Of a stretch of 40,286 nucleotides of DNA, positions 6,206 through 40,286 are shown in pieces. The notes under the pieces were generated by a model. It had not been told where the DNA came from and did not search any database. It was given only the letters and a program-made list of their open reading frames with translations. The translations under genes and the position numbers were made by a program. The stretch is from a virus, in UHGV virus genome UHGV-0218934. One strand, written 5' to 3'. How positions within the stretch are numbered: the stretch's first letter is position 1; each line of letters starts with the position of its first letter.

Positions 6206-7188
6206 GTGAAGATGTGAAAGAAATGCGGGAGCAGAAGATGGCCGTACCGATGGCGGGCGGCACCATGCCAAAGGAATCCGACGAGGAGCGCCTGACACGC
6301 CTGGCCGGAGAGATCAATGCCATCAAGGAACAGACGCGGGCGACGGTCCAGAACGCGACGCTCGAGATCGGCCGCCGACTCATCCAGGCCAAGGCAGCCG
6401 TGCCGCATGGCAGCTGGGCGTATTGGCTCAAGACATCGGTCGATTACTCCGAGCGCACGGCGCAGATGCTCATGAGTACCTACGAGCGTTTCGGCAATAC
6501 CCAGCAGAAGCTTTTCGGCGCGAAGATGGACCCAGAAGTCGTCAGTCAGCTGAACCGCTCACAGATGTTCGCGCTGCTGAGCATCAAGTCGGAGGATGAG
6601 TGCGCGGAGTTCATGGAAGAGCACAAGGATGATCTTGTCGACATGAGCAAGCGCGAGCTGGAGAAGGCTATCAAAGAGCGCGATGAGGCTCGGGCAAACC
6701 TCGAGACGTGGCGCAAGAGCAATAAGGAGCTCAGTGACACGGCACAGAGAGTCGTGGCAGAGAAGGAGAAGCTAAAAGAGAAGTTGCGGAAGATGACTGC
6801 TGAGACAAAAGAGACCGAGGGCGAGATGAAGCGCTTACAGGAAGAGATGGATGAGCGGGCGGCGCGCATCGCTGACCTCGAGAAGCACCTGCAGGAGGCA
6901 CAGCGTGCCGATGTTGAAGCCAGCGCTGTAGTAGAGCGCATGCCGGAAGAGGCAGAGCGGGAAATCAAGAGCCTTCGCGCCAAGATTGCCGAGCTGGAGA
7001 AGAAGCAAGGCAGGGAATCTGTCAGCCTCGACTTCAAGCGCCACTTCGAGAACATGAAAGGCGAGTTCAATGCGATGAACGAAGCACTGACATCCATGGA
7101 GCTGGATCAGCGCGAGCGATACCGGGCGGCCATGAAGAAGATGATGGATATGATGTTGCAGATTGTAGATTGTGGGGCGATGGCATGA
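6202..7188 (+). CDS. DUF3102 domain coiled-coil protein
   Basis: LEIGRRLIQAKAAVPHGSWAYWLKTSVDYSERTAQMLM. Confidence 0.85.
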   Translation: MSEDVKEMREQKMAVPMAGGTMPKESDEERLTRLAGEINAIKEQTRATVQNATLEIGRRLIQAKAAVPHGSWAYWLKTSVDYSERTAQMLMSTYERFGNTQQKLFGAKMDPEVVSQLNRSQMFALLSIKSEDECAEFMEEHKDDLVDMSKRELEKAIKERDEARANLETWRKSNKELSDTAQRVVAEKEKLKEKLRKMTAETKETEGEMKRLQEEMDERAARIADLEKHLQEAQRADVEASAVVERMPEEAEREIKSLRAKIAELEKKQGRESVSLDFKRHFENMKGEFNAMNEALTSMELDQRERYRAAMKKMMDMMLQIVDCGAMA

Positions 7189-9816: not shown

Positions 9817-11558
9817 GAGACCGCACGACGGAATACGCCAAGCTCGTCTTGAGCGGGCAGCGCATCTGCGGGCGGAGTGAAGTGCTGGCCGCTCAGCGCC
9901 ATATCAACGATATGAAAGATAAAGGCACGGAGTGGATCTTTGATGTCAAAGAAGCTGAGCGTCACATCGACATTGCCAACACGCTGACGATTGGCGAAGG
10001 CGAGGCGCATGCACTCCATACGCGCGGCTTCCAGAATTTCATTATCGGTAGCCTCTTCGGCTGGCGCAAAAAGCGCAGCGACATTCGAAGATATCGCGAG
10101 GCATATGTCCAAGTAGGGCGGCAAAATGGCAAGTCATTCCTGGCCGGCACGCTCGCGAACGACTTTGCGACCTTCGGCGGCTATCAGTATGGCAGGATCT
10201 TTTGTACAGCGACGAAACAGGACCAGGCGAATATCGTCTGGGACGAGGTGGCCAAGTTCATCCAGTCGGACAAGGATTTGGCCGAACTGTACAAGATCAA
10301 GACGTACGACCGCACAATCACAAGCAAGGTCACGGGGACGACCATCAAGGCAATCGGAAGAGACACGAAATCCGCAGACGGTTTCCGAACTATCCTTGCT
10401 ATCGTGGATGAGTATCACGCCCATCCGACGAACCAGATGTACAAGCTCATGATGGACGGTCAGGACATGGTCAAGAATGCACTGACCATCGCCATCACGA
10501 CCGCCGGCTTCAACCTCAAGAGCCCGTGCTACGAGCAGTATCAGTTCTGCAAGAAAGTATTGGAAGGCGTCGTGCAGAAAGACAATCTCTTCGTCTACAT
10601 CGCCGAGCTCGACGAAGAGGATGACATCTGGAAGAAAGAGAATTGGGCGAAGGCTAATCCGCTCAAGCTCTTCCTGCCGGATGAAGTCACGCTCGACGAC
10701 GAGAAGTTGGCTGTCGTGGCCAATAAGGCCATCGATGCCAAGGAGAAGCAGGGCGAAGAACTTGTGAACTTCGAGACGAAGACGCTCAACCAGTGGGTGA
10801 CTTACACGGGCGGTGCACTGCTTGATATGGCGGCCTGGCAAGCGGGTGGCAAGCCGTGGACATTGGCAGATATAAAAGGCCGGGAGGGTTATCTCGGCAT
10901 TGATTTGTCGAGCGGCGGCGACCTGACATCTATCAGTATCGTGTTCCCGCTCGGGGATGACAATGTATACATCTGGAGCCACAGCTACATGCCGGAACTG
11001 CGTCTGGCAGAGCACATCAGGAGCGATGATGCGCCGTATGGCGTCTGGAAGAATCAGGGACTCATCACACTGACGAGTGGCATGTATGGCATCAAGACCG
11101 ATTATAAGTACATCATTGCGGACCTCAAGCGCATGATTGACGAGTACGACATCGATATCATCGGCTGTGGCTATGATGCTCACAATGCGGCGGCGTTCCT
11201 GGCCGACCTCGAGGATGTACTGCAGTGCGACCTGACTGAGGTAAAACAGTCGGCGCGCAGCCTCAATGATACGACGAAGGACTTTCAACTCAGCGTCAAG
11301 GCTGGCCAGGTATCTTACGACCAGAACAATGCACTGCTGAGCTGGTCGGCCACCAATGCGATTATCTCGGAGCCGAATTCGTTCGGTGAGATCAAGGTGG
11401 ACAAGATGACGCAGACTGACCGCATCGACCCAATCGACGCTATCATCGATGCCTGGAAGATGTGGTTCCTCTCGAAAGAGAACAACGTGCCGGATGGCGA
11501 AGAGGCCCTGCAGATGTGGCTGGATTCAATGGGAGAAGATGAGAAAGAGGGGAGGTGA
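9813..11558 (+). CDS. terL: Terminase large subunit
   Basis: Walker A VGRQNGKS, Walker B AIVDEYH, ITTAG, nuclease GIDLSSGGDLTS, RIDPIDA. Confidence 0.97.
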   Translation: MRDRTTEYAKLVLSGQRICGRSEVLAAQRHINDMKDKGTEWIFDVKEAERHIDIANTLTIGEGEAHALHTRGFQNFIIGSLFGWRKKRSDIRRYREAYVQVGRQNGKSFLAGTLANDFATFGGYQYGRIFCTATKQDQANIVWDEVAKFIQSDKDLAELYKIKTYDRTITSKVTGTTIKAIGRDTKSADGFRTILAIVDEYHAHPTNQMYKLMMDGQDMVKNALTIAITTAGFNLKSPCYEQYQFCKKVLEGVVQKDNLFVYIAELDEEDDIWKKENWAKANPLKLFLPDEVTLDDEKLAVVANKAIDAKEKQGEELVNFETKTLNQWVTYTGGALLDMAAWQAGGKPWTLADIKGREGYLGIDLSSGGDLTSISIVFPLGDDNVYIWSHSYMPELRLAEHIRSDDAPYGVWKNQGLITLTSGMYGIKTDYKYIIADLKRMIDEYDIDIIGCGYDAHNAAAFLADLEDVLQCDLTEVKQSARSLNDTTKDFQLSVKAGQVSYDQNNALLSWSATNAIISEPNSFGEIKVDKMTQTDRIDPIDAIIDAWKMWFLSKENNVPDGEEALQMWLDSMGEDEKEGR

Positions 11559-29165: not shown

Positions 29166-30992
29166 ATGCTAAATGCGGGATTTCAATATCTTGAACAGCG
29201 TGATGCCAATGATACCATTACAAAAGATGGTGTAGTTGGCAAGAATAGTCCATTTGCTACATCGGACAACAGTGGTATCTACGACATTATCGCGGAGGAT
29301 TTACGGTGGCTCAAAGAGAATGTAGATGATGTAAAAGATACGTCTGATTTGGAAGCCATCAAGCAGTCTGTGACTGACATGTATAACGAGATGAAGAACG
29401 ATAGCTCGTTCGGTGAAGCGGCAGCCAAAGCTCAAGCAGAAGAAGCGAAGAAACAGGCACAGGCCGCATTAGAATCTGCAACCAATGCAAAGACGTATCG
29501 TGATGATGTTGTGGCAAAATCCACGGAAGCCAATGATACCCTTGCAGAGATTAAGAAATACATTGGTAAAGCAGAAAAGCTCGTTGAGTCTAACAAGAAG
29601 CTTGAGCAGTCTAACAAGAAGCTTGAGCAGTCTTTCTCTGATTATGTAACGATGGCATCTAACAAGGCAAAGGTTGCGTCTGATAGTGCCACTAATGCGG
29701 CTACGAGTGAAACCAATGCAAAGACAAGTGAAACCAATGCTAAGACGTCGGAAACCCATGCGGCTGAAAGTGCGGCCAAGGCAGAAGCTTCGATAGAAAA
29801 ACTTGGAACGCATGAAGCTAACGCGGCTACATCTGCTTCTAATGCAAAGGCTAGTGAGACTAATGCTAAGATCTCGGAAACAAACGCATCGAATAGTGCT
29901 AATTTATCTAAGGCATGGGCAGAGTCAAGTGATTCTCCCGATACGATGAATGATACAGATAGTACTACTGGTAAAACACAATCGTCAAAATCATGGGCAT
30001 TATACTCAAAAGACCGTGCTACCAGTGCATATAGCTCTGAAACGAACGCTAAAGCATCTGAGACCGCATCAAAGAACTCTGAAACCAATGCTAAGACAAG
30101 TGAGACCAATGCTGCTGAGTCTGCATCCAACGCAAAAGCATCTGAAATTGCATCGAAAACATCTGAGACCAATGCCGCTGCCAGTGCATCCAGTGCTAAG
30201 ACTTCGGAAGACAATGCAAGTACATCGAAATCCAATGCAAAGAACTCTGAGACCAACGCTAAGTCATACATGGATACAGCAAAGGAATACATGCAGAAAG
30301 CCCAGGAAGCTCTTGCGGCGGCACAGGCGATTCAATCCATTGTCGATACAGCAAAGGCCAATGCAGAGAAATGTCTAGCCGATGTAGAAGCAGTAAAAGA
30401 ATCATTAGCGAAGATGATTACCTATCAGGGTTCTGTCGATAATTACTCTGATTTGCCGACGAATCCGCAGGTTGGTTATTCGTATAATGTAAAGAACGCC
30501 GATAAGACACACGGTGTCAACGCAGGAGATAACCTTGTCTGGAACGGTGAGGACTGGGATAATTTTGGCGGTGCTATAGACATGAGCCTGTTTGCTGAAC
30601 TTGGCAAGGACGTTAAATTCAACACTGTTACGGCAACGACTTTCACGGGTAATTTAAAGGGTAATGCAGACACGGCCACCAAAGCAACACAGGACGCCGA
30701 TGGGAATGTCATTGCAGACACGTATCTCAAGAAAACGGAGCTGTCAGGAAAACAGGATAAGCTTACCTTTGATTCGACTCCTACGGCTAATAGTACAAAC
30801 CCTGTCACTTCTGATGGTATTAAAAAGGCAATTGACGCAAAAACTGCTGACCTTTCTGGCTACCAAACAAAGCTCACCTTTGATACGACTCCTACAGCTA
30901 ATTCCAGTAATCCTGTCACTTCCGATGGCGTTAAGAAATACGTAGACTCTGCCCTAGCGGCTCTCATTAGTGCAGACGATAAGAGTTATTAA
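29166..30992 (+). CDS. Side tail fibre (Stf-like ASETNAK repeats)
   Basis: Many heptad S-E-T-N-A-K repeats; YQGSVDNYSDLPT; duplicated KLTFD(S/T)TPTANS.NPVTSDG. Confidence 0.8.
   Translation: MLNAGFQYLEQRDANDTITKDGVVGKNSPFATSDNSGIYDIIAEDLRWLKENVDDVKDTSDLEAIKQSVTDMYNEMKNDSSFGEAAAKAQAEEAKKQAQAALESATNAKTYRDDVVAKSTEANDTLAEIKKYIGKAEKLVESNKKLEQSNKKLEQSFSDYVTMASNKAKVASDSATNAATSETNAKTSETNAKTSETHAAESAAKAEASIEKLGTHEANAATSASNAKASETNAKISETNASNSANLSKAWAESSDSPDTMNDTDSTTGKTQSSKSWALYSKDRATSAYSSETNAKASETASKNSETNAKTSETNAAESASNAKASEIASKTSETNAAASASSAKTSEDNASTSKSNAKNSETNAKSYMDTAKEYMQKAQEALAAAQAIQSIVDTAKANAEKCLADVEAVKESLAKMITYQGSVDNYSDLPTNPQVGYSYNVKNADKTHGVNAGDNLVWNGEDWDNFGGAIDMSLFAELGKDVKFNTVTATTFTGNLKGNADTATKATQDADGNVIADTYLKKTELSGKQDKLTFDSTPTANSTNPVTSDGIKKAIDAKTADLSGYQTKLTFDTTPTANSSNPVTSDGVKKYVDSALAALISADDKSY
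29587..29633 (+). repeat. Perfect 21-nt tandem duplication (SNKKLEQ x2)
   Basis: AGTCTAACAAGAAGCTTGAGC twice plus AGTCT. Confidence 0.9.
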
Positions 30993-31003: not shown

Positions 31004-32794
31004 ATGAGTAAAGTATTAGTAACAGAGTCATATTTGTCTGACATAAGTAATTCTATACGTGCTAAAACTAAAAGCATTACTAAATATAAGCCTAGCGAAA
31101 TGGCAAAGGCTATTGACTCTATTGCCATGGGAGACCCTGCTATTGTTGTCAACAGTGACTCTGCTTGGAGATATACTGTTACACAAAAAGAGCATGAAAA
31201 TATTACTGTTAGTGTTGGTCATGAGTTAGTTGGAAATAATACATCTGGCTATCAGGCAAAACTCATGTTTACTCCTTCCGTTTCTTCTAATTACGGGTAC
31301 AATGCAGGAACAATAAGGAGAACAGCAGACGAGAAAAACCATATCGCCAATTTTACAGTAGATGACGTTACAGAAGTCGATGGGTTACTCAAGGATGGAT
31401 GGGCTGGTATCTATGCCTTTGCTTTTAGTTCAAATTCTACTTCAGTTTCTCATTATTTTAATGACTATAATAACCATAGCTCTAGTAAGGTTAGTTCAAA
31501 TACAAGCATAGAAAATCTATTAATTCTCGGGTATTATATAGAAGATAGTAAGGGAAATCTGGTTGCAAAGACGCAGAATAACGTAGCGGAATATAACCCG
31601 TCAAGTCAGATATCACTTAAGAAATATCAAAATAAATACGCTACAAGTGTTGGTGATAGTGCGTTTTATAGTTGCTCTGCCTTGACTTCTGTGGATATCC
31701 CTAACGCTACAAGTGTTGGTACTTCTGCGTTTGGTAATTGTTCTGCCTTAACAACTGTAGACTTACTTAACGTCACGAAAATTGGTTATAGTGCATTTAG
31801 TGGTTGCTCTGGTTTAATAACGATAGACTTGCCTAACGCTACAAGTATTGACAATGCCGCGTTTCAGGATTGCTCTGCTTTAACGTCCGTTAATTTTTCT
31901 AATATCGCAACCATTGGTGCCTATGCGTTTCAGCGTGACTATGCACTGAAAACGATTTTTTTACGTTCTAAAACTATGTGTACCTGTGTAGGAGACCCTT
32001 GGGTTAACTCTTCTACAACCATTTATGTTCCTGAGTCTTTGATTAATTCTTACAAAGCGGCGACTTATTGGAGTAGGTATTCAGACAAGTTTAAAACCCT
32101 AGAGAGTATTAAGTTGTCTAAAATCTCTATTATTGGTTCTAGTAAAATCAATACCTATAACGGAAACACAAGAGGCACATATAAAGTCCAGTATAACGAT
32201 GGAGTTGTTTTACCAGAGCAAACGGGTGTAACGTGGTCTATCACTGGCAACGCAACGATATCTAAAGATGGCGTTGTAACGTTGAAAAATGCAAGTGTTG
32301 GAGACAAATTGACCATCACGGCAACCTCTACATATAATACTTCTATATCTGCATCGTTGACCGTATCTATTGTCAATGTTGCAACTAGTATGACAGTTGA
32401 CTTAAATAACGGACAATGGGTAGATTCTGGAACCACTGTTGACGGCCATACAATATATAAATCAGATGCAGGTTCCTATCATGTAAATAGTGGTTCATCT
32501 ACGTGTACAGTAACGGTCAAGGGGTATAATAAGGCAACTGTATATGTTCGTTCTTACGCAGAAGGAAACTATGACTATGTAGATGTTGGCCCTCTGGATG
32601 GTACGGTGACTAGAAGTAACGAGATCGTACCAAGCGTGTTAACCACTAGAGGCAGACAAAGTGCTACACAATATTATTCTCACACGTTTGAAACCGATGA
32701 TGGTAATACACATACTTTCCAAGTGATGTATTCTAAGGACGCTAGCGGCAATAATGATGATGACCGTGGTTATTTCTATGTCGTATGCGAATAA
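31004..32794 (+). CDS. Virion adhesin / receptor-binding protein with BspA-type LRRs and an Ig-like domain
   Basis: N-terminal LSDISNSIRAK...KPSEMAKAI; ~4 repeats NATSVG..AF..CSALTSVDIP; VTWSITGNATISKDGVVT; visibly AT-rich. Confidence 0.8.
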   Translation: MSKVLVTESYLSDISNSIRAKTKSITKYKPSEMAKAIDSIAMGDPAIVVNSDSAWRYTVTQKEHENITVSVGHELVGNNTSGYQAKLMFTPSVSSNYGYNAGTIRRTADEKNHIANFTVDDVTEVDGLLKDGWAGIYAFAFSSNSTSVSHYFNDYNNHSSSKVSSNTSIENLLILGYYIEDSKGNLVAKTQNNVAEYNPSSQISLKKYQNKYATSVGDSAFYSCSALTSVDIPNATSVGTSAFGNCSALTTVDLLNVTKIGYSAFSGCSGLITIDLPNATSIDNAAFQDCSALTSVNFSNIATIGAYAFQRDYALKTIFLRSKTMCTCVGDPWVNSSTTIYVPESLINSYKAATYWSRYSDKFKTLESIKLSKISIIGSSKINTYNGNTRGTYKVQYNDGVVLPEQTGVTWSITGNATISKDGVVTLKNASVGDKLTITATSTYNTSISASLTVSIVNVATSMTVDLNNGQWVDSGTTVDGHTIYKSDAGSYHVNSGSSTCTVTVKGYNKATVYVRSYAEGNYDYVDVGPLDGTVTRSNEIVPSVLTTRGRQSATQYYSHTFETDDGNTHTFQVMYSKDASGNNDDDRGYFYVVCE

Positions 32795-35087: not shown

Positions 35088-36785
35088 TTATGATTTGTAG
35101 CGGAAGGTATGGACCTGGCCGTTCGTGAATTCTATCTGCGTGACATGGCCATCGAGCACGACGATCTGCTTGATGATAGTGTTGACGAAGTTCTTGAGCT
35201 CGAGGTTGCCGACGTGCATGGCGAGCTCGGGAAAGTCGATGCCGCCGCGCGTCATGGCAGACTGGAAGAGGAGGTGAGCGGCTTTGCGCAGGAAGTCCTC
35301 ATCGGTCAGTGAGCTGGCGAAGACGGAGGGCTGTTGCTCCTTCTCGAGTTCGTCCTGCAGACGGGAAATATTGTCTTGCAGGTGGCGCTTCTCTCGCAAG
35401 AAGTCAGCCTGGGGCATTTCATCCTCGGCATAGAGGAAGAGGTGCATGAGACGCGACAATGCACGGCGATTCTTTTCAAGCTCTGCCTGCAGGGTGCTCT
35501 TGCGGGTCTGCTCTGCGCTGCCATCGCGCTGCTCATCGGCCGGATGATATTCTGCCGTGCCAGCATGACTGCCGAGCAGAGCGGCTCGGACGTGGCGAAG
35601 CGTGTCATCTGACAGCAAGGCCCCGCGGAAGACATCGCCCTGCAGCAAGAAGCGCTGGATGCGTGCCTTGGACCATTGCGGGCGAAATGCATCGCGCAGG
35701 CGGATCACATTGCTGATGTAGTTGAAGGCGAAGCTGCCGATGCGGATGTCGTTGACGTATCGGTTTTTGCACATGCCCTTCTGACGGCGGCCGCCACAGT
35801 TGTACATAGAGGGTTGGTAGCCGGACGCGCGGATACGGTCGAGTGATGCGATATAGTTGCTCCCGCAGACGCCGCAGCGTATCAGCCCGGCAAAGACGTG
35901 TATGCGCTTCCTCTGCACATGCGTGGCCTTGCCGTGATGGCGGCGGTTCTTCGTCAACCAAAAGTCAATCTGCTGGCAGTCTGCTTCGGAGAAAAGAGGC
36001 GGGTGGTGCTTCGCACACAGGATCCAGTCTTGCTGCCCCTTAAAGCTGAAGGTCGTGTCTGACTCGTCACGGTAGTTGTAGCGATAGGTGCCTCGATAGA
36101 AGGGGCTGCGCAGGATGATGGCCACGGTGGCTGGCGTCCATGCATAGCCGCGACGCGTGCGCCTGCCTGCCTCGTTGAGCAGGCGGGCCGTGTAGGTGAG
36201 GGAATGCGTGCGCAGGTAGGTATCCTTGAGCTCGAGCGCAACCTTGGCCTCATCGTCGCGAATCGAGAAGGAATCCGTCTCGCGGTCGTAGGCGTAGGCA
36301 AAAGGCACGCGGCCGCCATTCCACTTTCCTTCTGCGGCCCTGGCGTTCATGGTCGAGGATACGCGCTCGCTCGTCATATTGCGCTCGAGTTCGGCGAAGA
36401 CGAGGATGATCTTGAGCATGGCCTCGCCCATCGCAGTGGAGGTGTCGAACTGCTCGTTCTTGCTGACAAAAGTCACGCCGAGCTTCTTGCACCGCGCGTA
36501 CATCGTCGCAAAATCGAGCAGATTGCGGCTGATGCGGTCTATCTTCCAGACAAGCACGTGAGAAAATTCGCCGGCCTCGATGCGCTCCATCATGTCCTGG
36601 AAGGCTGGACGGTCCGTATTCTTGCCCGAGTAGCCGGCATCCTCGAAGACCTCATAATCCTCGATACCCAAGGCGTACCTGGCATAGTTTATCATGTCCT
36701 GCCTCTGCATCGGCAGGGAATCCTTGTCCACTTGGTGCAGCGTGGACACGCGGCAGTAGATTGCCGCTTTCTGTGCTCTTGGCAT
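35088..36785 (-). CDS. int: Large serine recombinase (integrase)
   Basis: AAIYCRVST catalytic Ser, DRISRN, FAELER, recombinase domain, zinc ribbon CGVCG...YNC...C, coiled coil. Confidence 0.97.
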   Translation of the reverse strand: MPRAQKAAIYCRVSTLHQVDKDSLPMQRQDMINYARYALGIEDYEVFEDAGYSGKNTDRPAFQDMMERIEAGEFSHVLVWKIDRISRNLLDFATMYARCKKLGVTFVSKNEQFDTSTAMGEAMLKIILVFAELERNMTSERVSSTMNARAAEGKWNGGRVPFAYAYDRETDSFSIRDDEAKVALELKDTYLRTHSLTYTARLLNEAGRRTRRGYAWTPATVAIILRSPFYRGTYRYNYRDESDTTFSFKGQQDWILCAKHHPPLFSEADCQQIDFWLTKNRRHHGKATHVQRKRIHVFAGLIRCGVCGSNYIASLDRIRASGYQPSMYNCGGRRQKGMCKNRYVNDIRIGSFAFNYISNVIRLRDAFRPQWSKARIQRFLLQGDVFRGALLSDDTLRHVRAALLGSHAGTAEYHPADEQRDGSAEQTRKSTLQAELEKNRRALSRLMHLFLYAEDEMPQADFLREKRHLQDNISRLQDELEKEQQPSVFASSLTDEDFLRKAAHLLFQSAMTRGGIDFPELAMHVGNLELKNFVNTIIKQIVVLDGHVTQIEFTNGQVHTFRYKS

Positions 36786-36829
36786 AGAGCTCTGCCTCCT
36801 CTCGGAGACCGGCAGATGTATCTATGCTC

Positions 36830-36870
36830 ATTGTAGCAGGAGAGCGGGCGGCCATGCGCACGCCGATGCG
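36830..36870 (-). promoter_or_regulatory. Integrase promoter (PI-like): extended -10 plus upstream activator box
   Basis: Minus strand CGCATCGGCG-22 nt-TGCTACAAT; same motif pair at 40063-40102. Confidence 0.6.
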
Positions 36871-36923: not shown

Positions 36924-37040
36924 ATCAAGTTATTCACTGGTCACTGGCGCGGCCATGGTAGTCCACAGCTGCCAGAATCTGGTGCCAGGGTCGTACCACC
37001 AACGGCACAGAAAAAGCCCGCGCTCTGGCGGGCTTTTCTT
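36924..37040 (+). ncRNA. Putative ~115-nt structured sRNA / attenuator leader
   Basis: Between promoter and strong terminator; nested stems 36944-50/36982-88 and 36956-62/36968-74. Confidence 0.6.
37009..37040 (+). terminator. Intrinsic terminator (likely bidirectional)
   Basis: AAAAGCCCGC/GCGGGCTTTT stem + CTT. Confidence 0.8.
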
Positions 37041-38253: not shown

Positions 38254-39234
38254 TTACTTTACATAATCGCGTAACATATCGTAGAAAGTATCTTCACTTA
38301 AAATATGAAGATCCTGGCCTTTTAAAATGAGATTTTCAGCCTTTTTCATTTTCGTACTTTTTCCACCTTTTACATTTGGACTGTCTTTTAAACTCCCTAT
38401 GACTAGAAAATTAGTTTTCATAGTTACGTTATTTTCGCAAAAACCACCAATATTGCAAACAATCTGTGCAGCATCTTTTCTGGTATAGCGCTCCAGCTTT
38501 CCGGTGAAAACAACATTTTTATGGAAAAGAGGATTGGATGGATCATTTAGTGATACATCACCGGCTAGCTTTCTTAGGTCAACAGTTTTTGTTTTATAGG
38601 TAGATAGATCAATCCTTCTCTTTACGGATTCTTCTTGTAAGCAGGATAGTAATTTTTGAGTCGCTTCACAATCGCTTAATGCGCGATGATAGTCATTCTC
38701 TATCGAATATAATTTACACAAATCAAATAAACGATGATGGGGGAGTTCTGGTAAAACGATTCTTGCAATTCGCATCGTATCAACAAAGTCGTTTTGAAAA
38801 GGGATATTTAAAGATTTCAAGAAGTTATCATATAGAAAGTTTATATCAAAGTTAACGTTATGCCCTACAATAACAGACTGACCGATAAAACCATATAGTT
38901 TTTTTGCAATATCGTCGAAGGTAGGAGCATCTTTTAGCATATCATCTGTAATACCAGTGAGTTTCGTAATAAAGCTATCTACATAATGGCGGCTGCCATC
39001 AAAATATTCAAGCAGAGGAGGTTTAACATATGTGTGAAATGTATTTACGATTTCGCCGTCATTGATATGCATGCAAGCAATTTCTATAATATTATCAAAA
39101 TGAGCATCTAATCCTGTCGTTTCTAAATCTAGAACAACGTATTCTGAAGGAACAGATAAAATAGATTTACCTTTTTCGCGCTTGATAGGTGTTTCATCCA
39201 AGATGCTTGGCGAACCAATAGATATAGTAACCAT
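38254..39234 (-). CDS. DEDDh 3'-5' exonuclease (DNA Pol III epsilon-like) with C-terminal BRCT domain
   Basis: VLDLETTG, GHNVNFD, HRALSD; BRCT VVFTGKLE..TRKDA...GG...TNFLVIG. Confidence 0.9.
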   Translation of the reverse strand: MVTISIGSPSILDETPIKREKGKSILSVPSEYVVLDLETTGLDAHFDNIIEIACMHINDGEIVNTFHTYVKPPLLEYFDGSRHYVDSFITKLTGITDDMLKDAPTFDDIAKKLYGFIGQSVIVGHNVNFDINFLYDNFLKSLNIPFQNDFVDTMRIARIVLPELPHHRLFDLCKLYSIENDYHRALSDCEATQKLLSCLQEESVKRRIDLSTYKTKTVDLRKLAGDVSLNDPSNPLFHKNVVFTGKLERYTRKDAAQIVCNIGGFCENNVTMKTNFLVIGSLKDSPNVKGGKSTKMKKAENLILKGQDLHILSEDTFYDMLRDYVK

Positions 39235-39317: not shown

Positions 39318-39689
39318 TCACGTTGCCGTGTCTTCGGCCTTGGGTTTGTCGTTGTTGTAACAGGTGTCGAGGACGGCATCGACGGCTGCGCGACTGTTGG
39401 GTGTCAGGATGTGATACTTGCGCAGGAGATCTTGATCCTGAGATGAAATCTCAGAATCGGATGCAAGGGCGGCAACGGTTTTGCTAGACGATTTGGTATA
39501 CTCAAGTAAATAATCTGTACTTACTTGAAAATATTTCGCAATATTACATAGAGTATCATAGTCGGGTGTGGCCTTGCCCACTTCCCACTTGCCTACGGCT
39601 TGCTGAGTGACGCCTAGGATTTCAGCGAGGGTAGCCTGAGAAATATGATGGTTAGACCGCAATGATTTTAGGCGAGATGAAAAAGACAT
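39318..39689 (-). CDS. cI: CI-like XRE repressor
   Basis: ISQATLAEILGVTQQAVGKWEVGKATPD HTH; divergent from cro; AGGAGGTG RBS; no S24 peptidase domain. Confidence 0.88.
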   Translation of the reverse strand: MSFSSRLKSLRSNHHISQATLAEILGVTQQAVGKWEVGKATPDYDTLCNIAKYFQVSTDYLLEYTKSSSKTVAALASDSEISSQDQDLLRKYHILTPNSRAAVDAVLDTCYNNDKPKAEDTAT

Positions 39690-39715
39690 AGTATACACCT
39701 CCTATTATATAGAAT

Positions 39716-39826: not shown

Positions 39827-40042
39827 ATGAAAAGAGAAAAGCTAATCGAGTACCGAGGGAAGAACTCCCAGGCCTATATGGCGAAGAGGTACGGAGTAAC
39901 ACAGCAGGCTTGGTGTAAGTGGGAACAGGGAGAAAGTAAACCTGGCGTCGTTATCATGAAAAAGATAGAAGCGGATAGTGGCATCCCCATGGAAGCTATT
40001 TTTTTTGATGTTTTTAACAACCAAAAGAAGTTAAAAGCTTAA
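39827..40042 (+). CDS. cro: Cro-like HTH protein
   Basis: SQAYMAKRYGVTQQAWCKWEQGESKP; recognition helix VTQQA shared with CI. Confidence 0.88.
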   Translation: MKREKLIEYRGKNSQAYMAKRYGVTQQAWCKWEQGESKPGVVIMKKIEADSGIPMEAIFFDVFNNQKKLKA

Positions 40043-40062: not shown

Positions 40063-40102
40063 ATTGTAGCAGTATTTACCGGCGCACGGCTTCGCCGATG
40101 CG
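40063..40102 (-). promoter_or_regulatory. Leftward promoter antisense to cro (PRE-like)
   Basis: Minus strand CGCATCGGCG-21 nt-TGCTACAAT, pointing through cro toward cI. Confidence 0.6.
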
Positions 40103-40119: not shown

Positions 40120-40286
40120 ATGAAGAAGATCAACAGAAAGATGCAGACCTGCAAAGCTGTTGCAGATGGGGCCAGCGAGGTATTGGACGGCCTCGCCAAG
40201 CAGGGAACCATTGATAGCTACATTGTCAGCTGCTGTATCACCGCTCCTACGGCGGACGGCGGTACGGACTACGACTCGGGCAGCGT
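40120..40286 (+). CDS. N-terminal part of the 107-aa junction-spanning early protein
   Basis: AAGGAGG RBS; open to the window end; completes at 157. Confidence 0.8.
   Translation, partial: MKKINRKMQTCKAVADGASEVLDGLAKQGTIDSYIVSCCITAPTADGGTDYDSGS

Follow-up and report, generated by a model that had tools for sequence, protein, structure and literature searches.

Gene content of the phage genome

The DNA analysed here, a stretch of 40,286 nucleotides from the virus genome UHGV-0218934 (hereafter the window), has the appearance of a temperate phage genome that is circularly permuted, since an ORF starting at 40120 runs over the end of the window into positions 1-165. It carries a cI-like repressor gene (39318-39698, - strand) and a cro-like gene (39827-40042, + strand), and its early, structural and lysis genes all lie on the + strand. 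The integrase gene (int; 35088-36785, - strand) encodes a large serine integrase of 565 aa with Resolvase, Recombinase and Zn_ribbon_recom domains (phrog_95). A hairpin followed by a T run (37010-37038, - strand), terminator-like when read from the sequence and folded although absent from the listing of the terminator scan, parts the cI-side genes from the int promoter. Close relatives of the window occur in Selenomonas, Mitsuokella and related genomes and the host of the phage is therefore presumably a Selenomonadaceae bacterium.

Two small genes of the early region are relevant to what follows. The first (503-766, + strand) encodes an HTH-like regulator of 87 aa (phrog_6499, transcriptional regulator, E 7e-20) which is a candidate CII-like activator. 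The second (831-995, + strand) is a 54-aa ORF predicted to encode the recombination directionality factor (RDF) of the integrase. Between them lies a segment, here called the trigger (770-787, + strand), that is complementary to the predicted 5' end of the int mRNA in the window and in each related phage having both sites (16/16 pairs). Of phrog_6499 (157 positions), the HTH regulator covers the N-terminal half only and, in outgroup loci, an RDF-like gene is found directly 3' of a gene whose C-terminus suggests a longer HTH form; the trigger would then occupy the place of the missing C-terminal half of the HTH gene.

Integrase promoter and leader

The int promoter is predicted from an extended -10 element, TGCTACAAT (36830-36838, - strand), that sets the transcription start at 36823. 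TACAAT occurs at a fixed spacing in 18 of 20 leaders, mostly with the TG extension, the exceptions being L121 (TATACT) and L120, which has neither a -10 element nor the conserved upstream box. This box, CGCATCGGCG (36861-36870, - strand), is a candidate activator site found as such or as a variant in 19/20 leaders, 21-22 nt ahead of the -10 element. A second copy of box and -10 element is located at 40063-40102 (- strand; box at 40093-40102), where it is directed antisense into cro towards cI. Besides the window, 10 of 22 related loci have this copy, some of the 22 stopping short of cro; it was not found in type B loci or in L120 (sequence types are described below). By analogy, the pair formed by these elements at int and antisense after cro would resemble pI and pRE of lambda.

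With a start at 36823, the site matching the early operon would make up the first 19 bases of the int mRNA. The predicted start is thus located upstream of 36805, at the beginning of the match, as the earlier sequence-only reading of this DNA requires. In the mRNA, this 5' end (36805-36822, - strand) comprises a toehold and the 5' arm of hairpin 1, GUCUCC-GAGA-GGAGGC (36794-36809, - strand), which buries the int Shine-Dalgarno (SD; 36795-36799). That fold had been proposed before and the burial of the SD holds, but it is only one of two near-equal folds, both of which bury the SD. The proposal was also incomplete in describing the SD hairpin alone, a second hairpin, GCUCU-AUGCCA-AGAGC (36775-36790, - strand), being found here with the int start codon in its loop. 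As for the 5' toehold, it is free as claimed in folds extending to about +25 but is partly paired in longer ones; for the predicted start site, opening it would cost 5.6 kcal/mol in the window, 1.4-5.6 in type A and 0.2-0.6 in types B and C.

Several features indicate that the leader behaves as an RNA, namely the loop of hairpin 1, which has four different sequences in relatives that are all GNRA (GAGA, GAAA, GGAA, GCAA), and the both-side changes of hairpin 2. The latter is 100% paired in 10 distinct leaders, with both-side changes at 3 of its 5 pairs and none of 500 shuffles scoring as high, counts that are inflated by the relatedness of the sequences. These changes extend over untranslated and coding sequence and so point to selection on RNA structure. 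L120, in which the stem of hairpin 1 is longer by two U-A pairs, and L121, in which a U-G pair is changed to C-G and the loop has six bases, were both misaligned in the covariation alignment; read by hand, their hairpin 1 is fully paired. Folding z-scores of the leaders are modest (-0.7 to -2.5), and the predicted SD opening energy in the 16 isolated leaders ranges from 5.0 to 13.7 kcal/mol.

A complementary site in the early operon

The 18-mers at 770-787 and 36805-36822 are 17/18 identical, as reported in the sequence-only reading, and their sole difference, a leader G facing a U of the early RNA, does give a G-U pair. Relative to transcription the two sites have opposite orientations, the early one being on the + strand and that of the int leader on the - strand. 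No third copy with up to 3 mismatches was found in the window, including the cI/cro promoters, and Rfam gave no match at gathering score in the window. Taken genome-wide, a 17/18 match was rejected as stand-alone evidence. Two sets of 15 Markov genomes contain 1.8 and 2.1 such pairs per genome, located anywhere, that is ca. 2 per genome by chance, and the window itself has 17, of which 5 lie outside the tail repeats (the match itself and 4 others). A match to the 60 nt preceding int was obtained in 1/40 Markov genomes. Because a 17/18 pair is ordinary in a genome of this kind, the significance of the match rests on its relatives. An attachment-site reading of the match was also discarded: several prophage records stop a few bases past the int stop codon, a position that assigns att to the 3' end of int.

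The trigger covers GUCUC of the hairpin 1 5' arm in 16/16 phages and is followed just 3' by a hairpin, GCAGG-CGGCAA-CCTGC (789-804, + strand), whose 5 pairs are kept in 13/13 aligned sequences, one of them (L120) with a both-side change. A larger hairpin, 770-812, had been described with an unpaired seed. The seed is indeed open (0.6 kcal/mol), but of this structure only the inner 789-804 hairpin is conserved; the outer stem (772-812) is absent from the consensus and was dropped as a conserved feature. The idea of an early trigger RNA needs a similar adjustment: the complement does belong to the early operon, but it is carried in the leader of the small RDF ORF and not by a free-standing RNA. 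Neither a dedicated sRNA gene for the trigger nor a promoter-like site ahead of 770 was found, and the scan lists no + strand terminator-like site between cro and 770.

Insertions in two relatives bear on the position of the trigger. In L093, 570 nt are inserted between the trigger and the HTH gene, so that a tie to the HTH gene alone can be dismissed. In L008, an insertion of 570 nt separates the trigger from the RDF ORF, with loss of the 789-804 hairpin. Since the trigger survives insertions on either side, it appears to need the early operon but adjacency to neither gene, a placement that is as expected for an element acting in trans.

Conservation and co-change of the two sites

Related loci were gathered by integrase, HTH protein, small ORF and DNA-pattern searches. 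Both sites are present in 16 phages, the window and 15 related prophages (L001-L008, with L087 for L004, L118-L120, L128, L214, L215 and L315). Other loci were set aside for one of the two sites, either because they have no leader (L009/L088) or because they end short of the trigger (L213, L216, L217), and L125 and L151, in which int is broken, and L121, a 3-kb contig, were left out as uninformative. In L125 (1002-2214) and L151 (10001-10237) internally deleted integrase remnants are found with an intact leader, and these genomes show no RDF or trigger match.

Complementarity extends over 15-19 bases in all 16 phages, with 7 perfect pairs, 6 having one G-U and 3 having a mismatch (A-C in L005, C-U in L215, and near the end in L120). 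Ten phages, designated type A, have sites resembling those of the window. In the five type B loci, whose integrase is ca. 66% identical, both sites lack one base and have another changed. Type C is represented by L120 (integrase 61% identical), in which a pyrimidine-rich toehold unlike that of type A is mirrored by a purine-rich trigger. The match is thus retained in 15/15 relatives having both sites, as the sequence-only reading would predict, and co-changes in two lineages. By its sequence record it is a real, conserved and co-varying feature, the co-change amounting to two independent lineage events and not to sixteen. These data also make it barely credible that chance or a neutral duplication produced the match. 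The chance frequencies given above speak for such an origin, whereas retention over up to ca. 40% integrase divergence with both sites changing together speaks against it.

Co-change alone would fit a shared binding site as well as RNA pairing. Events that G-U pairing can tolerate and events that it cannot occur in about equal number (ca. 3 to 3), so that wobble bias does not help to decide, and in L215 the trigger has the type B base while the leader lacks the matching change. In four further relatives, represented by contigs, the sole trigger differences among those listed are 773 A>G and 775 T>C. Both copies might be DNA operators, or RNA sites, of one protein, such as a repressor that binds between +2 and +19 of the int promoter and also ahead of the RDF gene. 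A site just downstream of the int start would suit a repressor, the 18-mer contains a weak dyad (GAGAC-N8-GTATC), and autoregulation of an integrase by Int or RDF is documented in KplE1 (PMC2951348; this and the other published sources are cited for the accessible parts of their text). Yet the site exists in two copies only and is missing from the cI/cro promoters, its central 8 bases are no less tightly matched and co-changing than its arms, and half of it is replaced in L120 while the HTH and RDF homologues persist. Moreover, its position is that of the anti-SD arm in a conserved RNA hairpin, within a leader having compensatory RNA pairs, and no promoter-like site was found ahead of the early copy. 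We regard the operator explanation as distinctly improbable.

Outside this clade the arrangement is different. Across 55 leader clusters, the best antisense site falls at the RDF leader in 4/4 clade clusters and in 0/46 outgroup clusters with an RDF ORF. Outgroup integrases (ca. 39-50% identical) often have a terminator-like hairpin ahead of the SD instead, which suggests that the pairing device is lineage-specific. DNA-pattern scans revealed no new lineage, 9 of 19 hits of one scan belonging to the family of the window and the 10 new hits examined from another having neither int nor RDF. A leader of the window type was found in none of 221 genomes of the Megasphaera order, and three genomes (G002, G003, G004) have the leader while the trigger and RDF are absent. 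In six outgroup loci (L035, L069, L075, L076, L078, L079) arrays of short GGACAGTCC-like repeats are located 5' of int and are suggestive of protein-binding sites.

Predicted effect of pairing

Co-folding of the two segments predicts that pairing opens the int SD in all 16 pairs, as had been anticipated, the opening energy dropping by at least 3 kcal/mol in each (mean 10.9 to 3.3; 10.0 to 4.8 kcal/mol in the window). The RDF SD shifts by 2 kcal/mol or more in only 5/15 pairs, all of type B and towards a more open state, and is unchanged in the window (5.3 before and after). Because the int SD opens throughout and the RDF SD mostly stays as it is, the conserved consequence of pairing in these models would be activation of int translation. 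Over the region from SD to AUG, ca. 10 kcal/mol of structure is left after binding, owing to hairpin 2.

Net binding energies range from -9.7 to -21.9 kcal/mol across the 16 pairs. Type B leaders bind the early RNA of their own type at -11.3 to -13.5 and that of type A at -0.6 to -8.8 kcal/mol, while for the L120 leader the values are -19.3 with its own early RNA and no better than -8.6 with those of other phages. The L120 early RNA is in turn bound by type A leaders at -9.9 to -13.3 kcal/mol, which matches some cognate pairs.

A putative recombination directionality factor

A profile built from the gathered integrase loci found a homologue of the ORF at 831-995, on the strand opposite to int, in 131 of 137 int loci having at least 7 kb upstream. 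When folded with integrase residues 130-565, the ORF product gave a complex score of 0.79, the best control giving 0.01; the mark used is reached by 116/157 solved and 2/215 mismatched pairs and serves here only as a rough guide. At least 94% of contacts are shared between runs, with a pLDDT of at least 73 for the partner. Predicted contacts involve integrase residues 357-364, 399-414, 487-512 and 536-557 which, with domain limits read from the sequence, places them just past the coiled coil and in C-terminal strands, at the modelled DBD2/coiled-coil junction. Solved integrase-RDF complexes exist, and the passing score may for this reason partly reflect likeness to known complexes. Overall, the models indicate that the ORF likely encodes the RDF of the integrase.

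The product resembles the known RDFs of large serine integrases in being a small early phage protein with predicted binding at the DBD2/coiled-coil junction, the region at which such RDFs have been predicted (PMC12286644, PMC11795197), and predictions of this kind were verified for 6/9 integrases (PMC12286644). It differs from them in having no Pfam, PHROG or PDB family match; Atlas gave none either. Its motifs are also absent from the text of the supplement of Shin et al., a statement that covers this text and not the pictured alignments.

More broadly, the ORF belongs to an unannotated family of ca. 50 aa with the motif GI.TD.EL...lDI.lFV, other members of which occur in L010-L079 and L208-L291. 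The family travels with a serine-integrase clade across Clostridia, Bacilli, Erysipelotrichia and Negativicutes, and its members are candidate RDFs. The integrase of Faecalibacterium phage FP_Brigit, 45% identical to that of the window, is among the gut Firmicutes integrases for which this family is nominated.

A differently built pair in Megasphaera prophages

Two Megasphaera prophages, L132 and L133, whose integrase is 36% identical to that of the window, have a different leader in which a stem buries both SD and AUG. This leader pairs over ca. 33 bases with an early intergenic site (9944-10003, + strand, with about 6235-6272, - strand, in L132; the same in L133) at -46.5 and -48.5 kcal/mol, with a z of about -6 and a next best site at -31 to -34. 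The early site is the RBS of a 28-aa ORF which is the best hit of the RDF profile among 1230 frames, a weak hit (E 0.008 and 0.003) limited to an 11-residue motif. Upon pairing, the opening energy of int is predicted to fall from 15.5 to 2.8 and from 15.0 to 5.8, while the duplex covers SD and AUG of the small ORF, whose opening energy would rise from 7.8 to 10.1 and from 4.2 to 10.4. Since L132 and L133 are close relatives, this case is suggestive only. The Megasphaera-type pair was matched in only 2 of 39 genomes of that family, and no viral relatives of it were found. The sequence CGGCAACC is found in the leader loop of L132 and L133 and again in that of the 789-804 hairpin of the window. 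In L132 and L133, the promoter region resembles a second copy of the RBS region arranged in tandem.

These prophages bear on the direction in which pairing acts. It might act mainly, or also, on the early mRNA, the 5' end of a CII-like-activated int transcript reducing the output of RDF, either by covering a ribosome standby site or through cleavage of the duplex, and thereby favouring integration. Such an effect would account for how integration is reached; it agrees with the Megasphaera duplex lying over SD and AUG of the small ORF with a raised opening energy, and with the box and -10 element shared by int and the region after cro, reminiscent of lambda pI and pRE (PMC5300877). In the clade of the window, however, the trigger ends ca. 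28 nt ahead of the RDF SD, whose opening is unchanged or, in type B, made easier, and L008 has kept its trigger at 570 nt from the RDF gene. We consider this reading unlikely.

A model for the control of integrase synthesis

Together, these data are best read, and with good probability, as mRNA-mRNA activation of serine-integrase translation. As far as sequence comparison goes, the proposal that an early trigger opens the int RBS is supported: neither loss of the match in close relatives nor a predicted transcription start downstream of it, two of the findings named as speaking against it, was observed. The int mRNA would start at the 18-nt match and fold with its ribosome-binding site shut. 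A segment of the early lytic transcript, 5' of the likely RDF gene, would pair in trans with this 5' end, nucleating on the unpaired 5' bases and then invading the anti-SD arm so that the SD is freed. In a lysogen, with the early operon silenced by CI, such int mRNA as is made would remain folded shut, keeping Int low; translation of Int would be confined to the time when the cro-led early operon is transcribed, that is upon infection or induction. Synthesis of Int and RDF would in this way be coupled even though their genes are 4 kb apart on opposite strands. More tentatively, the int promoter may also need the CII-like activator, which would make a two-input gate.

The appearance of Int together with the RDF suits excision and does not by itself explain integration. 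Decay of the RDF after repression, or a reciprocal arm of the switch, are candidate ways in which integration could win. Extending the second of these, Negativicutes prophages may possess a reciprocal switch between int leader and RDF leader that turns Int on, and RDF down if int mRNA is in excess upon CII-like activation, and that arose at least two times in different designs, with a 5' toehold in phages of Selenomonadaceae and, in those of Megasphaera, a loop-and-arm duplex over the RBS of the small ORF. This wider scheme is tentative and, on balance, doubtful. Returning to translational activation, the trigger is likely an RNA key that, in these gut and rumen phages, switches on the integrase together with its predicted excision partner. 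If so, the RDF-bearing early message itself licenses integrase translation, and engineered toehold switches have a natural equivalent, already diverged into at least three sequence types. The RDF family nominated here for a large group of gut Firmicutes integrases would be useful for reversible genome-editing tools.

Relation to known systems

Anti-antisense activation by a trans-acting RNA is known for RNAIII and hla. DsrA and rpoS provide another such case (PMC6537650). As in both, the leader of the window would fold on itself to hide the SD and the trans RNA would pair with the anti-SD arm; in the models the SD is paired within the leader and the trans RNA complements this arm, leaving out the SD itself, which is the arrangement of anti-antisense control. 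Unlike in these systems, activation would come from an intergenic stretch within a polycistronic phage mRNA and be directed at a phage integrase, through a near-perfect duplex of 17-19 bp at the extreme 5' end of the target.

In the original toehold-switch design, the RBS is unpaired in a loop and the AUG lies in a stem bulge. The leader of the window does not have this layout, its SD being in the stem of the GNRA-capped hairpin 1 and its AUG in the loop of hairpin 2. The mechanism would be an anti-antisense opening from a 5' toehold, which works like the toehold switch named in the sequence-only reading and departs from its canonical layout. What would be shared with synthetic toehold switches is a predicted 5' single-stranded toehold, the RBS-hiding hairpin and strand displacement by the trigger, but the device is natural and its toehold is ca. 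7-12 nt long vs. 14 (PMC9071393). The nearest prophage case in the sources covered is that of Salmonella prophage Gifsy-1, where IsrK likewise is a prophage RNA that binds in trans to a translationally inactive prophage transcript and activates it; it is however a short isoform from the locus of its own target and leads to AntQ, whereas trigger and target are here in separate operons and the target is int (PMC4825925).

Control of lambda int involves CII-activated pI and pRE, xis-int coupling and sib retroregulation (PMC5300877). The window phage would be similar to lambda in that Int supply is tied to the developmental decision and to the directionality factor, and a candidate promoter box recurs at int and on the strand opposite to cro. 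In lambda, int and xis are coupled in cis by sharing a transcript, and mRNA decay is controlled as well (PMC5300877); here a serine integrase and its predicted RDF, encoded on opposite strands, would be coupled via RNA-RNA pairing. The integrase controls described in the accessible text of PMC2951348, PMC5300877 and PMC7397523 are transcriptional or act via protein or mRNA decay, and no RNA-pairing activation of an integrase was found in the part of the open-access literature covered. In phages with serine integrases, the timing of Int and RDF is poorly described because both genes are often unlinked.

Other features of the genome

A terminator-like hairpin with a T run (36750-36767, + strand) is located antisense to int, inside its first codons, and could stop antisense transcription short of the leader or be due to chance. 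A gene for a DEDD/RNase T-type exonuclease (38254-39234, - strand) is found in AT-rich DNA directly downstream of cI and is likely expressed in the lysogen. The early region also contains two strong antisense sigma70-like promoters (- strand), each followed by a terminator-like hairpin (449-421 and 240-206; 1837-1809 and 1777-1747), which are possibly units for short antisense RNAs or morons. Finally, late genes of the tail region contain coding repeats of 21 nt and 66 nt at 29477-30247 and 31638-31901, the latter of which look like leucine-rich-repeat units.
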